From Escherichia coli (GTDB lineage Bacteria > Pseudomonadota > Gammaproteobacteria > Enterobacterales > Enterobacteriaceae): a DNA stretch of 64,000 nucleotides. Each line of letters starts with the position of its first letter. Position 1 is the stretch's first letter. Made by a program: the position numbers. This document shows positions 9,001 to 15,000 of this stretch, in pieces. Location of the stretch: NCBI RefSeq assembly GCF_045037415.1, contig NZ_CP173440.1; one strand, given 5' to 3'.

Positions 9001-12000
9001 CGATCTGATAGAGAAGGGTTTGCTCGGGTCGGTGGCTCTGGTAACGACCAGTATCCCGATCCCGGCTGGCCGTCCTGGCCGCCACATGAGGCATGTTCCG
9101 CGTCCTTGCAATACTGTGTTTACATACAGTCTATCGCTTAGCGGAAAGTTCTTTTACCCTCAGCCGAAATGCCTGCCGTTGCTAGACATTGCCAGCCAGT
9201 GCCCGTCACTCCCACTCGATTGTAAACAAGCACACAAAACCCTTTAGTGACAACAATTTGCAAGAACTATCAGGCTCAGTGCCATGAAAAATACCATGAC
9301 CAGATCATGAGGTTGAACACGGCTTGCGCCGGCAGCGTTCACGCTCCTGGTCGGCGATCTCGCCCGGCTGCAATGCTAGCTCAGCATCGGTCATGCGCTC
9401 CAGCACGTCGCGTAGGCGGATGGTGCAAGGAATGGGCGGCAGCTCGAACTCATAGCCGCCGGCGATCATTTCGGCCGCAATCTCCTCGGTGATGAAAAAC
9501 GGCTCGTCGTCTTGGTTCGGCTTCTTCATGCCCTTTCCTCCTGGCGCTCATCCTGGCCGACAGCGGCCAGGGCATCGGCTTCCGTCAATGCGTCCTCCAC
9601 GAACGCGCCGTGCTGCTTCGCTTCGGCCTGGCTGACCTCGGCCCATATCCGTTTCACCTGGGCCGCACTGTACCCGGCCAGCTCGGCGGTCTTGTTGATG
9701 CTGTAGCCGGACTTGCGCAGCGCGACAACTTGGGCGCGGCGCTTCGGATCAGCACGGCGGCCCTTGTACCGCCCGGCCTGGCGGGCCAACTCAATGCCTT
9801 GGCGCTGGCGTTCGCGCCTGTCCTCGTAGTCGTCGCGGGCCATCTGCAAGGCCAGGCGAAAAAGCATGATCTGCACGGCTTCCAGCACGATCTTGGCGAC
9901 GCCCTGGGCCTCGGCCGCCAGGTCGGATAGATCGACCACGCCAGGGACGGCCAGGCTTGCGCCTTTGGCCTGTATCGAGGCCACCAGGCGCTCGGCCTCG
10001 GGCAAAGGTAGGCGGCTGATGCGGTCGATCTTCTCGGCAATGACCACCTCGCCGGGCTGTAGGTCGCCGATCATGCGCAGCAGCTCAGGCCGGTCGGCGC
10101 GTGCGCCGGATGCCTTCTCACGGTAGATGCCGGCGACGTAGTAGCCGGCGGCCTTCGCGGCCGTAGTGATCGCCTCTTGGCGTTCCAAGTCCTGCGCGTC
10201 GGTGCTGACGCGCAGATAGACCCGCGCCACCATCGGCGCGGCTACTGGCTTCGTCCTGCGCATACTTGCGGGCTCCTTTGGGCATACGCAAAGTGTCCGG
10301 TCATGCTACCCCCGGCCAAAAAGGCCGTCATGCGATTTATCTTGGCCGGGTCGTTATTGGCGGGTCTAAATGGCCGCTCCGTGGATCTCATCGCCAGAAA
10401 TGGCGATGCGAGATCCAGGGCAGGGCGGCCGCCATCGTCAGACCTGGCGATGGTCGACGCCGGCGCGCATCGTCGGATGTGGCGATGCGAGCTCGAGGTC
10501 GGTGGCCACCGCCGGCGACCTGGTGCCATCGTCGGCAATGGCGATGCTGCAGCTCGACGTGCGCGGCCTGGTCGTCTCGGCATCGTCGGATGCGGCGATG
10601 CTCGAGCGAGGCGAAAAAAAACCGCCTCGGGGTGTCCGAGGCGGCAAGTCTGCATGCGGTTCAGGGAGGAAGAAACCGCGCCGGCGATCAGGGAGGAAAA
10701 CCGCGCGGCCTGATGTGCAGCTCGGCCACTTTAGCCGGATTTTTCGACTTATCCGATGCGAGCGGCCCGCCGTGGGCGCTGCTCGATCTGCTGTTGCTTT
10801 TTCTCGACGTGCTTCTGCTCCTGGTGCTGCTGCTCGTCGCGCGGCACTGTTGCAAAGTTAGCGATGAGGCAGCCTTTTGTCTTATTCAAAGGCCTTACAT
10901 TTCAAAAACTCTGCTTACCAGGCGCATTTCGCCCAGGGGATCACCATAATAAAATGCTGAGGCCTGGCCTTTGCGTAGTGCACGCATCACCTCAATACCT
11001 TTGATGGTGGCGTAAGCCGTCTTCATGGATTTAAATCCCAGCGTGGCGCCGATTATCCGTTTCAGTTTGCCATGATCGCATTCAATCACGTTGTTCCGGT
11101 ACTTAATCTGTCGGTGTTCAACGTCAGACGGGCACCGGCCTTCGCGTTTGAGCAGAGCAAGCGCGCGACCATAGGCGGGCGCTTTATCCGTGTTGATGAA
11201 TCGCGGGATCTGCCACTTCTTCACGTTGTTGAGGATTTTACCCAGAAACCGGTATGCAGCTTTGCTGTTACGACGGGAGGAGAGATAAAAATCGACAGTG
11301 CGGCCCCGGCTGTCGACGGCCCGGTACAGATACGCCCAGCGGCCATTGACCTTCACGTAGGTTTCATCCATGTGCCACGGGCAAAGATCGGAAGGGTTAC
11401 GCCAGTACCAGCGCAGCCGTTTTTCCATTTCAGGCGCATAACGCTGAACCCAGCGGTAAATCGTGGAGTGATCGACATTCACTCCGCGTTCAGCCAGCAT
11501 CTCCTGCAGCTCACGGTAACTGATGCCGTATTTGCAGTACCAGCGTACGGCCCACAGAATGATGTCACGCTGAAAATGCCGGCCTTTGAATGGGTTCATG
11601 TGCAGCTCCATCAGCAAAAGGGGATGATAAGTTTATCACCACCGACTATTTGCAACAGTGCCCTTTCGACTACCTCCCCTCAAAGCCATATCACGTACGT
11701 TAATCCTGACTTCATTAAAATCAGTGGTTTCACTGAGGAAGAACTATTAGGCCAGCCTCACAACATCGTAAGACACCCAGATATGCCGCCTGCTGCATTT
11801 GAGCATATGTGGAGTACATTAAAATCTGGCCGCTCATGGATGGGGCTAGTAAAAAATCGCTGTAAAAATGGCGACCACTATTGGGTAAGTGCTTATGTAA
11901 CGCCAATAGCTAAGAATGGTTCGATTGTTGAATACCAGTCTGTAAGGACCAAGCCTGAACCTGAGCAGGTTTTGGCTGCGGAAAAATTATATGCTCAATT

Positions 12001-15000
12001 GAGAAGCGGGAAGGCCGCGAGGCCGAAATTGGCTGCTAGCTTTTCCGTGAAAATACTCTTGCTCATATGGGGTAGTATTATATCAAGCGCAATGGCTGCC
12101 GGCATGCTTACTGATACATCAATAAGCAGCTTATTGTTAGCCACTTTAATGTCAGGAAGCTTAAGCTCTGTTAGTGTTTTGGCTATTCTCTCTCCTCTTG
12201 GAAGACTGGTTGAAAGAGCCAGGAATATTTCCAATAACCCATTAAGTCAATCCCTCTACACTGGGCGCACCGATGAGTTTGGCCAAATAGAGTTTGCTTT
12301 ACGAATGATGCAAGCTGAAACAGGCGCCATAGTAGGTCGCATAGGTGATGCATCAAATCGGCTTAGCGAACACACCCGAGGCCTACTAAAGGATATTGAG
12401 TCAAGCAATGTACTTACAGTTGAGCAGCAGGCAGAGACAGATCAAATAGCAACGGCAGTAAACCAAATGGTGGCAAGCATTCAAGAGGTTGCGAGCAATG
12501 CACAGCATGCTGCAGATGCGGCCGGAAGAGCAGACACTGAGACGGCATCTGGCCAGCGTCTGGTAGCCCACACAAGCCAGTCAATCACTGCCCTTGAAGG
12601 TGAAATTAGGCAAGCCACTCAGGTTATTCATGAGCTTGAAGGTCAAAGTAACGAGATATCAAAAGTTCTTGACGTTATACGAGGGATCGCCGAGCAAACG
12701 AATTTGTTGGCACTCAACGCAGCAATTGAGGCCGCGCGTGCTGGTGAGCAGGGGCGTGGTTTTGCTGTTGTCGCCGATGAGGTTCGCAGTCTTGCTGCTC
12801 GCACACAGCAATCGACAACGGATATTCAAAGCATGATCAGCGCTCTACAAGAGCGAGCGCAATCCGCTGTTACAGTCATGGAGCAAAGTAGTCGGCAAGC
12901 GCACACGAGTGTAGCTCACGCAGAGGAAGCAGCTACAGCTCTTGATGGAATTGGCCAACGCGTTAACGAAATTACCGACATGAACGCGCAAATAGCGACT
13001 GCGGTCGAGCAGCAGGGAGCAGTAAGTGAAGACATAAACCGCAGTATTATCAATATACGCGATGCTGCTGATACCAATGTACAGACCGGGCAGAATAATT
13101 TGCAAAGTGCGAAATCTGTCGCTCAGTTAACTAGCGCTCTGAGCGAACTGGCAAAACAGTTTTGGGAAAAACGAGGATAACGCTTTTCAGTATCTCGACA
13201 GGGATAACTTACTTTACCATCGGTTATCCCTTTTAGCCGCACAAATTTTAGCCATGGCTTTTCAGGAAGTCAGGGCTATCAGAATGGCCTTAGAAAGCCT
13301 AGTCAAAGAGCTGTCACGAGAACACCGTTAGCTTAGCGTACGATTTTTTCCGAATTCTGCGGTTCCCCCTTTCATGGCTTTTCAGCTGAGTAATTCTCTC
13401 AATAAGCCATCTGAAATTACTGTATGACATTCTATCCTCTACAAGACATTTTAATCATTTGTGTTTGGTAATAAATTTAAAAGTTCGCCAGGTAATGTCT
13501 CGTCTTCTAGTAGCATAAAGTTCCCATCCAGAAACTCTAAGTTAATATATTCTCTGTATAGTTGAATATACTGATTAATGGTGTAACATAAGTTATTACA
13601 GATGATGCTACAGTTTTCTCCCCATAAGTCGTGCTCTTTCTGAAGGTTTTCATGCATTTCATAGGGTTCATTTTTTTTCCAGCTTTTTAAAACCATATAT
13701 CCTCTTCGCCCCATTTCCATATATCTAAACTCCATGAAATGTTTTTCAAGAGCAAGAATCCATGGGTACATTGCTTCAATTGCTTCTTTAAAACCCGGAA
13801 TATCATACGTTTGTTGATTACAAATGCCGACAATTTTCCTCAAATCCCTTAAAGTATCAGCTTCAATATAATTGGCAGACAAATTAGTGACAAAGAGGCC
13901 TGGCTGATCTAAAGGTAAATGCCTGACTAGGTAGTTATGTATAACCATTTCTTTCTTATATGAGGGCGTCTCGACATTCAAAAATGTTTTTAACTTTGAT
14001 GCTGGTAATTTCATTGCTAAACGGTGAAGGCTCGAAGAGCTGAAAACATCTGCGTGTTCTAACTTATAATCTTCTTTAATTTTCGCAAGAGTGGTATATA
14101 TCTCTTTTGGAAACCCCTGTTCTTTATCATTGATAACCGCATAAAAAACTTTAAACTCGCAAGACTCATTCCATGATTCTTTTATTTTTTCAACATCTGC
14201 TTTCATTTTTTTTATTGCAAATTTTATTGTTTCGCGATTTAATTCCTCCGGAGCGTATACTTGATAATATTCCCCTCGCTCTGGAATATAACCATCGTTA
14301 CCGCCATCACCTTTTCTTCCCCAAGGTTTGACCTTCCTGAATTTTTCAGGGTAAGATAACTCCATTACGGTTTCAAATAGTCTTTGATATTCTACACCGT
14401 TGCTACGGAGTATTTCTAAACGCATACGTGCCCAAAAATCTGACATATAAAAATTTCCTCGAAAATAGCAGATCTCTAATGTTTATCTATTCCTTATCAT
14501 CTTTTATTGGGAAAAACAACCTCAACGCATTAACTACCGAAAGTAAGCTTAAACGGGTGTGAAGGCCGTAACCATTTCCATCCAGATATAGCGAGACCAT
14601 TGTTCACATCCCACAACTGAACGAGGCCCAATTTAGCAATCCACCACGCAGAGAAAGTAAAGGAATCTTATGGCATAGATGCACGTAAGTGGTAAGGTAC
14701 TGGGCATCTACAAAACCTTATTTCTAAGCCATCGAGCCAGTCCGGTGTCCAGTATGAGTTCGGCAAGCCTGATGGGGCCAATCATAGTGACTCCTTCAGC
14801 ACGAAGGTCCTCACTCAATGTCCCTCGATGCCAGACAAAGAACATTCGAGCATAGCTGTCACTGGTCTGGAACAGTGACAGATACTCAGAGAATACAGAC
14901 GGGTCAGCAACAGACTTCACTTGCACAAATGCCCGTTCGCCGGTAGTGGGCAGTTCAAGCTCAATGTCTACGGTCTTCTGTGTCCTCCCAAGGCACCCGG

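Follow-up and report, generated by a model that had tools for sequence, protein, structure and literature searches.

Truncation of the Tn1721 passenger gene mcp by IS26 at the right edge of a plasmid resistance island in Escherichia coli

The aer-like gene abutting IS26 in the window (the whole 64-kb stretch of DNA that was analyzed) is mcp (orfI), a known passenger of Tn1721 cut after codon 20; it is a real but ordinary feature, and one that is already known. On the basis of the sequence comparisons below, the junction between island and backbone is placed at 13369/13370, and mcp is assigned to the island cargo rather than to the backbone. This arrangement would almost certainly have arisen by a Tn1721-type insertion and an IS26 hit in mcp, with a later IS26-driven loss of the left side leaving an inert Δmcp scar (Table 1).

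Table 1. Features around the IS26/mcp boundary and the right edge of the island (positions in the window)
Feature	Position	Strand	Description and basis
IS26	10843-11662	-	820 bp; both 14-bp inverted repeats (10843-10856, 11649-11662) perfect
tnp26 transposase gene	10895-11599	-	234 aa; ORF list
Hybrid ORF	11624-13180	+	518 aa: 13 IS26-encoded codons plus Mcp residues 21-525; public annotation WP_053897648.1 / QCS89878.1
Δmcp (orfI)	11663-13180	+	Codons 21-525 of the Tn1721 Aer-type methyl-accepting chemotaxis protein plus stop; Pfam, identity to 525-aa Mcp
Tn1721/Tn1722 left-end remnant	11663-13369	+	Δmcp, 151-bp spacer and IRL; 1,707 bp; pFBAOT6 identity
38-bp terminal inverted repeat of Tn1721, mcp-proximal end	13332-13369	-	Exact match to GGGGGAACCGCAGAATTCGGAAAAAATCGTACGCTAAG
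TTTCA, 5-bp target duplication of the Tn1721 insertion	13370-13374	.	First backbone bases; uninterrupted sites and relative
First backbone gene	13451-14446	-	331-aa hypothetical protein, IncFIB(Mar)/IncHI1B-type plasmid; WP_004026572.1 in relatives
Tn1721 IRR (tnpA-side repeat)			GGGGAGCCCGCAG...; expected beside TTTCA at the left island edge, outside the window

Alignment with the intact 525-aa Mcp shows that codon 21 (CTT, Leu) starts at base 11663 and that the stop codon occupies 13178-13180; the encoded product is 100% identical to Mcp apart from the missing 20 residues, and the lost peptide, MRQNLPVTGRNLELPKDANI, accounts for exactly 20 N-terminal codons. In pFBAOT6, the start codon of the intact gene lies 60 nt upstream of the IS26 breakpoint, and the missing 5' end thus equals 20 codons of pFBAOT6 mcp. 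The sequence-only reading, in which IS26 truncates an Aer-type receptor gene whose PAS core begins in frame directly after the element, with about 20 codons lost, is borne out by this comparison, coordinates included. The remaining 505 codons match PAS_3 (2e-17), HAMP (1.1e-10), and MCPsignal (9.4e-44) in Pfam, and the product aligns to residues 7-476 of E. coli Aer (E = 1.4e-64) with matching residue numbering, its matches to Aer chains in the PDB having E values of 1.4e-64 and 4.5e-40. Δmcp therefore retains the N-terminal PAS domain, HAMP domain, MCP signaling domain, and Aer homology of an Aer-type PAS-containing MCP, but not a complete PAS domain, because the deleted residues 1-20 comprise the N-cap (Aer residues 1-19) and residue 20. 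In E. coli Aer, this N-cap has been described as essential (PMC9668731). In an NCBIfam search for a specific named family, equivalog hits were all below threshold, and the match was otherwise to a generic PAS domain model. As applied to the intact Tn1721 Mcp, for instance by Allmeier et al. 1992 in their title (see PMC7319535), the label "chemotaxis protein" refers to sequence features only.

The identity to Tn1721 extends well beyond the gene. All 1707 of 1707 bases from 11663 to 13369 are identical to Tn1721/Tn1722 in pFBAOT6 (excerpt positions 11001-12707), and the identity ends exactly at the outer base of the 38-bp repeat GGGGGAACCGCAGAATTCGGAAAAAATCGTACGCTAAG, which is present as a single copy in the window and also bounds Tn1721 in pFBAOT6. 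When the pFBAOT6 Tn1721 was compared with the window by BLAST, only this 1707-bp end was recovered, the rest of the transposon (the mcp 5' end, res, tnpR, tnpA, tet(A), and the other repeats) being absent. Because it carries no tnpA, tnpR, or res, the segment is classed as a Tn1721 remnant and not as a transposon, and it is unable to transpose or to be resolved. A 13-bp repeat, CATGGCTTTTCAG, is present within the Tn1721 end and again immediately beyond it, with no support for any role.

The placement of the junction at 13369/13370 follows from three uninterrupted backbone sites, from the TTTCA duplication in a relative, and from a drop in G+C. The uninterrupted sites, in three related plasmids, read ...CCCATGTG/TTTCATGGC... 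and contain one copy of TTTCA, and their match to the window begins only at 13370. In the close relative phvKpST395_NDM-1_1971, the far island edge reads ...CATGTGTTTCA/IRR-tnpA with the same TTTCA duplication, the order there being backbone-TTTCA, IRR-tnpA of Tn1721, and IS26. The right copy of the 5-bp target-site duplication is thus found in the window and the left copy in the close relative only. A search of the 64-kb window for the backbone genes of the left side (TerY, PP2C phosphatase, and kinase) found none; the left edge of the island therefore lies outside the 64 kb, so that the left copy of TTTCA and the tnpA end of Tn1721 were seen in the close relative and not in this molecule. 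At about 13400, G+C steps from 0.45-0.51 (about 0.48) to 0.34, and the first backbone gene encodes a hypothetical protein without a Pfam match.

The element adjoining Δmcp has the hallmarks of IS26 (IS6 family), namely the 820-bp length, the perfect 14-bp terminal inverted repeats, and the Tnp26 gene. Both copies of the terminal repeat GGCACTGTTGCAAA are perfect, against a chance expectation of 0.03 matches; the whole element is the reverse complement, identical over 820 bp, of an annotated IS26 in pTZ40-KPC, and its tnp26 DNA appears in public records as WP_001067855.1, "IS6-like element IS26 family transposase." It is the tnp26-proximal end (IRL) that adjoins the truncated gene. A second IS26 in the window, at 3953-4772, is identical to this copy and in opposite orientation. 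No 8-bp target-site duplication was found at 10843-11662, where the flanks are CGTCGCGC and CTTTCGAC, and its absence there indicates a secondary rearrangement rather than a different element; no 8-bp duplication, direct or inverted, was found around either window copy.

Our results strongly suggest the following history. A Tn1721/Tn1722-type transposon (Tn3 family) would have inserted between the kinase gene and the 331-aa hypothetical gene in a Klebsiella plasmid backbone of the IncFIB(Mar)/IncHI1B type, duplicating TTTCA and bringing in the passenger mcp (orfI), which encodes an Aer-like PAS-HAMP-MCP receptor and reads outward to the terminal repeat. IS26 would have entered mcp at nt 61-68, duplicating CTTTCGAC, and later IS26-driven rearrangements, whether by adjacent deletion, by cointegration, or by recombination of one IS26 copy with another, would have removed all DNA to the left of IS26, including the first 20 codons and the promoter of mcp as well as res and tnpR. 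The lost DNA would have been replaced by resistance modules (resolvase, ISVsa3, sul2, the second IS26, and armA), leaving 11663-13369 as an inert 1,707-bp scar, a promoterless Δmcp with the Tn1721 end, at the right edge of the resistance island. Directly observed are the junctions, the identities in sequence, the uninterrupted backbone site, and the two target duplications; the succession of events and the absence of expression or function are inferred. Because the IS26/mcp junction also occurs on other backbones, the order of backbone insertion and IS26 hit is not fixed, and a Tn1721 derivative already disrupted by IS26 may have arrived by transposition as one unit.

Adjacent deletions are a known product of IS26, and the truncation could accordingly have been made in one step, by a deletion from an IS26 further to the left that ended at mcp nt 60/61 with no prior simple insertion, as the lack of an 8-bp duplication around the window copy would allow. 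We consider this unlikely, because the E. coli plasmid pPK8568-122kb carries a single identical IS26 in mcp, in the same orientation and at the same breakpoint, with CTTTCGAC on both flanks as an 8-bp duplication. The other side of the original insertion, which the sequence-only reading had suggested looking for, is thus preserved in that plasmid together with the near side, and the reciprocal IS26/mcp junction was found in six further records. With a breakpoint common to about 450 plasmids, it is more economical to assume one ancestral insertion and a subsequent loss of the DNA to its left.

The same 8-bp target in mcp, nt 61-68, holds IS26 in both orientations. On the 3' side of the target, about 450 PLSDB records have the window orientation and about 470 the inverted one, and both orientations occur on the 5' side as well (two sequences compared). 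Homologous recombination and replicative IS26 reactions preserve the IS end that faces a given flank, so that two orientations at one target make an in-place flip conceivable. Such an undescribed inversion of IS26 or of IS26-bounded segments, through exchange at the IS termini, would compete with two independent hits on a hot spot, and we regard it as very unlikely.

With respect to expression, the public annotation of the hybrid coding sequence starts at an in-frame ATG (11624) that lies 39 nt inside IS26. The possibility that IS26 rescues the gene, with this ATG and transcription from IS26 yielding a working 518-aa IS26-Mcp receptor in motile hosts, possibly locked in one signaling state, draws on an open frame that runs from 11072 across the junction, on the annotation of the 518-aa product by NCBI's PGAP and other pipelines, on complete PAS core, HAMP, and signaling domains, and on the retention of the junction in about 450 plasmids, some of them in motile E. 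coli and Enterobacter. However, a simple consensus scan of 11200-13500 found no plus-strand sigma-70-like promoter site, and a hybrid promoter using the -35-like TTGCAA at the IS26 end (11650-11655) would have ACCTCC, CCTCCC, or CTCCCC at 16-18 nt spacing, none of them a usable -10. In addition, GGGG directly abuts the ATG without normal Shine-Dalgarno spacing, the closest upstream genes are on the opposite strand, and the native N-cap is swapped for unrelated residues. The persistence of the junction can be explained by hitch-hiking beside resistance genes, and Klebsiella pneumoniae, in which these plasmids mainly occur, is classically non-motile. Rescue by IS26 is therefore highly improbable. 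The sequence-only reading had made intactness depend on a supplied in-frame start codon and promoter: the start codon is there, but no promoter-like site is, and with the native N-terminus also gone the gene is not intact. For the same reasons, the hybrid ORF, or Δmcp, is most likely a dead remnant and probably unexpressed.

That the aer-like gene belongs to the backbone, with the island ending at the IS26 edge 11662/11663 as the sequence-only reading had proposed, agrees with the frequent bounding of resistance regions by IS26 copies and with the absence of resistance genes from the part of the window that follows 11663, but has next to no chance of being right, being refuted by the 100% identity to Tn1721 mcp in pFBAOT6, by the Tn1721 terminal repeat that follows and carries the remnant on to 13369, by uninterrupted sites without the gene, and by counts, the gene occurring in 2,768 plasmids, which span many genera and replicon types, and the backbone segment next to it in only 93.

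These counts, from PLSDB, also contradict the earlier view that a chemoreceptor gene is unusual plasmid cargo: mcp is a standard Tn1721 passenger, and the gene or fragments of it occur in 2,768 of 72,556 plasmids. The same IS26/mcp junction is present in about 450 plasmids with various backbones, and the exact 1,707-bp leftover in hundreds of sequenced resistance plasmids. The adjacent backbone segment is found in 93 records only; a figure of 213 plasmids with the Tn1721-repeat/backbone junction, obtained with an 80-bp query, was rejected as inflated by chance extensions. Among plasmids sharing the Δmcp-backbone junction, the DNA to the left of IS26 varies, for example catA2 in OW848894.1 and a resolvase/ISVsa3/sul2 module here. 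From an annotation point of view, the resistance island in these plasmids ends on the right with the Tn1721 terminal repeat (13369/13370) and not with IS26. In relatives, the whole island sits within a Tn1721 skeleton that keeps both ends and a full-length tnpA, and this skeleton is useful for reconstructing the assembly of hybrid virulence/resistance plasmids. WP_053897648.1, the 518-aa "PAS domain-containing methyl-accepting chemotaxis protein" recorded on hundreds of plasmids, is the IS26-edge hybrid ORF and should not be taken for an intact plasmid-borne chemoreceptor. Beyond correct annotation, the importance of the feature is little.

Among known systems, E. coli Aer (the aerotaxis/energy receptor; PDB 8DIK, PAS domain) shares with Mcp the PAS, membrane anchor, HAMP, and kinase-control architecture, and its PAS domain is strongly similar, including the GQPHN(I/M)VRHPDMP segment with the same residue numbering; Aer, however, is the product of the chromosomal aer gene, whereas Tn1721 Mcp is a transposon-borne homologue and the window copy is without the N-cap. 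Tn1721/Tn1722 (Tn3 family, Tn21 subgroup), described as IR-mcp-res-tnpR-tnpA (PMC7319535; PMC4541600) and intact in pFBAOT6 (NC_006143.1), is identical in mcp codons 21-525, spacer, and 38-bp repeat but also has the first 20 codons and the promoter of mcp, along with res, tnpR, tnpA, the tet(A) module, and the remaining repeats, all of them missing from the window. The hybrid virulence/resistance plasmid pKpvST147B_virulence (NZ_CP040726.1) is 99.5% identical over window positions 1-23259 and has the same order (armA, IS26, sul2, ISVsa3, resolvase, IS26, Δmcp, backbone, repB). Of the phvKpST395_NDM-1 sequences (NZ_MW911666.1, NZ_MW911669.1), NZ_MW911669.1 is 99.6% identical over 21001-46000; these relatives of the multidrug resistance island differ from the window by small indels (two- and three-piece matches). 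The description of the closest plasmids mentions neither Tn1721 nor a chemotaxis gene (PMC8226487). On the other hand, IRL_Tn1721-Δmcp remnants of 1455, 1601, and 1707 bp have already been published (PMC7319535). That of p911021-tetA, among IncFIB-family Klebsiella plasmids, combines truncated mcp and terminal repeat in 1707 bp, equal to window 11663-13369, a likeness taken from published length and description, and its backbone and the resistance modules beside IS26 may differ. In p911021-tetA, 5-bp direct repeats show that transposition came first and disruption later (PMC7319535).

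The DNA at 11663-13369 is identical at 1707 of 1707 bases to the left end of the Tn1721 copy carried by pFBAOT6, an Aeromonas plasmid (NC_006143.1), and the truncated chemoreceptor gene within it, Δmcp, is a Tn1721 gene rather than a backbone gene. In intact Tn1721 of pFBAOT6, mcp and tnpR are divergent with the res region between them, which agrees with the published Tn1722/Tn1721 order IR-mcp-res-tnpR-tnpA-IR (PMC7319535; PMC4541600); a search of the window beyond 11663-13369 found no further Tn1721 DNA. The 505 codons match Pfam PAS_3 (2e-17), HAMP (1.1e-10), and MCPsignal (9.4e-44), and align with Escherichia coli Aer over residues 7-476 with identical residue numbering (E = 1.4e-64) and with the Aer PAS structure 8DIK (E = 4.5e-40). 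The intact database protein (525 aa; its cluster has 2,579 members) begins with MRQNLPVTGRNLELPKDANI and continues LSTTSPQ.... In pFBAOT6, mcp begins precisely 60 nt before the IS26 breakpoint, so the gene in the window lacks exactly 20 codons and a codon starts at 11663. The sequence-only reading, that IS26 truncates an Aer-like gene, removes about 20 N-terminal codons, and leaves the frame open from the first base after it, is thus borne out, with a complete IS26 ending at 11662. In Aer, the absent stretch equates to the N-cap (residues 1-19) together with the first β-strand residue, and the N-cap is reported to be indispensable for the stability and signalling of Aer (PMC9668731).

Features of the Δmcp region and loci with IS26 at the same mcp target
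Feature	Position	Strand	Remarks
Δmcp open frame, 505 codons	11663 to stop 13178-13180	plus	Pfam matches, Aer alignment
IS26, complete, 820 bp	10843-11662	transposase gene on minus	perfect 14-bp terminal repeats
Tn1721 terminal repeat, 38 bp	13332-13369		perfect; pFBAOT6 identity ends at its outermost base
518-aa "PAS domain-containing methyl-accepting chemotaxis protein" WP_053897648.1	ATG 11624	plus	starts 39 nt inside IS26; public annotation
IS26 at target CTTTCGAC, window	11649-11670
IS26 at target CTTTCGAC, L003 (NZ_MT810372.1)	5195-6034
IS26 at target CTTTCGAC, L013 (NZ_CP098232.1)	3021-3860
IS26 at target CTTTCGAC, L011 (NZ_CP080128.1)	7033-7868

The IS26 edge had been taken for the island-backbone junction, whereas the true boundary lies 1,707 bp further right, at 13369/13370. 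Only 93 PLSDB records, almost entirely from Klebsiella, contain the backbone segment 13370-13669, and in three of these records (related plasmids L007, L008, and L009, similar to the window only from 13370 rightwards) the site is uninterrupted, ...GGAAGCCCATGTG running directly into TTTCATGGCTTTTCAG..., between the kinase gene of a TerY/PP2C/kinase cluster and a 331-aa hypothetical gene. The closely related plasmid phvKpST395_NDM-1_1971 (NZ_MW911666.1) shares the Δmcp-backbone junction and has the far island edge, ...CATGTGTTTCA abutting GGGGAGCCCGCAGAATTCGG..., beyond which lie a full-length Tn1721 tnpA and then IS26. These sites, the TTTCA at the far edge, and a step in G+C near 13400, where 0.45-0.51 gives way to 0.34, define the boundary; the far edge and the uninterrupted sites point to insertion of Tn1721/Tn1722 here with duplication of the 5-bp TTTCA, and the resistance island lies inside this transposon skeleton. 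A 13-bp exact direct repeat, CATGGCTTTTCAG, occurs 120 bp apart in the Tn1721 end (13253-13265) and in the backbone (13373-13385), where it starts 4 bp past the tip of the transposon; since the uninterrupted sites contain this backbone copy too, it is older than the insertion, and the repeat is probably due to chance, though improbable for two such short stretches. Two nearby backbone ORFs on the minus strand, 13451-14446 (331 aa, in a 34-37% G+C stretch) and 14708-15625 (305 aa), are conserved in the 93 plasmids and gave no Pfam match. The backbone at 21001-46000 matches phvKpST395-type plasmids at 99.6%, and in their annotation this segment contains a group II intron reverse transcriptase (ltrA), two TnpB-family genes, a helicase, and a toprim-domain protein.

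The opposite flank of the original insertion, to be sought among homologues, was also found. The reciprocal junction (mcp through nt 68, then an IS26 end) is present in seven plasmids, and pPK8568-122kb carries a single IS26 in mcp, identical to the window copy in sequence and orientation, with CTTTCGAC on both sides, which is the simple insertion into mcp nt 61-68 in its original form. In the window lineage, all DNA left of IS26 would subsequently have been lost and replaced by other modules. The Δmcp-backbone junction is constant while these modules vary (catA2 in OW848894.1; resolvase/ISVsa3/sul2 in the window and pKpvST147B_virulence), which is typical IS26-mediated shuffling. Four copies of the 14-bp IS26 terminal repeat lie in the window, where chance alone would give 0.03, and the 8-bp flanks of the IS26 adjoining Δmcp are unrelated (CGTCGCGC versus CTTTCGAC). 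An identical, mutually inverted copy lies at 3953-4772, and the intervening 4773-10842 segment, comprising sul2, ISVsa3 (ISCR2-like), and the resolvase, could be inverted by recombination; no 8-bp duplication, direct or inverted, was found at either copy.

A chemoreceptor gene had also been considered unusual plasmid cargo, which proved wrong: mcp or its fragments, with many different truncation points, occur in 2,768 of 72,556 PLSDB plasmids from Klebsiella, Escherichia, Salmonella, Aeromonas, Pseudomonas, and further genera. About 450 records, including Providencia, Edwardsiella, and Enterobacter plasmids, have the IS26-mcp nt 61 junction in the window orientation, so that this gene is routine cargo wherever Tn1721 is involved. 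At this same nucleotide, the 3' side of the target also meets IS26 inverted in about 470 records (e.g. the KPC plasmid pTZ40-KPC), and the reciprocal 5' junction likewise occurs in both orientations. Known IS26 reactions and homologous recombination fix the IS end at each flank, so the pattern implies two independent hits or an undescribed flip; two independent insertions at the identical 8-bp site are the simplest reading, and an in-place flip, which would give both orientations at one nucleotide, is very improbable. A Proteus mirabilis protein in nr (P0001) derives from a second, independent IS26-mcp fusion ORF whose junction (...TICNSA/PKDANILSTT...) lies 15 nt (5 codons) further upstream, indicating repeated IS26 hits on the mcp 5' end.

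Of a start codon and promoter that might restore the gene, only the former is present: an in-frame ATG lies inside IS26 at 11624, in a frame antisense to tnp26 open from 11072 (about 590 nt), while no promoter-like site was found on the plus strand of 11200-13500. At the appropriate distance from the -35-like TTGCAA of the IS26 end, the search for a -10 gave only ACCTCC, CCTCCC, or CTCCCC. Because there is no promoter-like site, GGGG immediately adjoins the ATG, the closest upstream genes are on the opposite strand, and the N-cap is lost, we infer from the sequence that Δmcp is a non-functional remnant without expression. Klebsiella pneumoniae is classically non-motile. Public records annotate ORFs at both IS26 edges as proteins (11072-13180, plus, the 518-aa protein; 10749-10889, minus, the 46-aa WP_001044210.1), and such ORFs reading out of IS26 look like recurrent annotation artefacts.

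Taken as a whole, the window shares 99.5-99.9% identity with pKpvST147B_virulence and phvKpST395_NDM-1, which are hybrid virulence/resistance plasmids. In relatives, Tn1721 terminal repeats bound both ends of a roughly 47-kb island, with the TTTCA duplication and full-length tnpA (988 aa) and without tnpR and res (noted at 6400-10246 of phvKpST395_NDM-1_1971, outside the window); in principle, it could move whole as one very large Tn1721 derivative, forming unresolved cointegrates. The tnpA-side IS26 of phvKpST395_NDM-1_1971 leaves only 19 bp of tnpR, so about 0.9 kb of Tn1721 is gone from its skeleton, namely tnpR, res, the mcp promoter, and mcp nt 1-60. "Tn1721 remnant (IRL_Tn1721-Δmcp)" segments of 1455, 1601, and 1707 bp have been described in Klebsiella IncFIB-family plasmids (PMC7319535), the last equal in length to the window remnant, which is an already known, widely spread scar of Tn1721 and IS26 activity.
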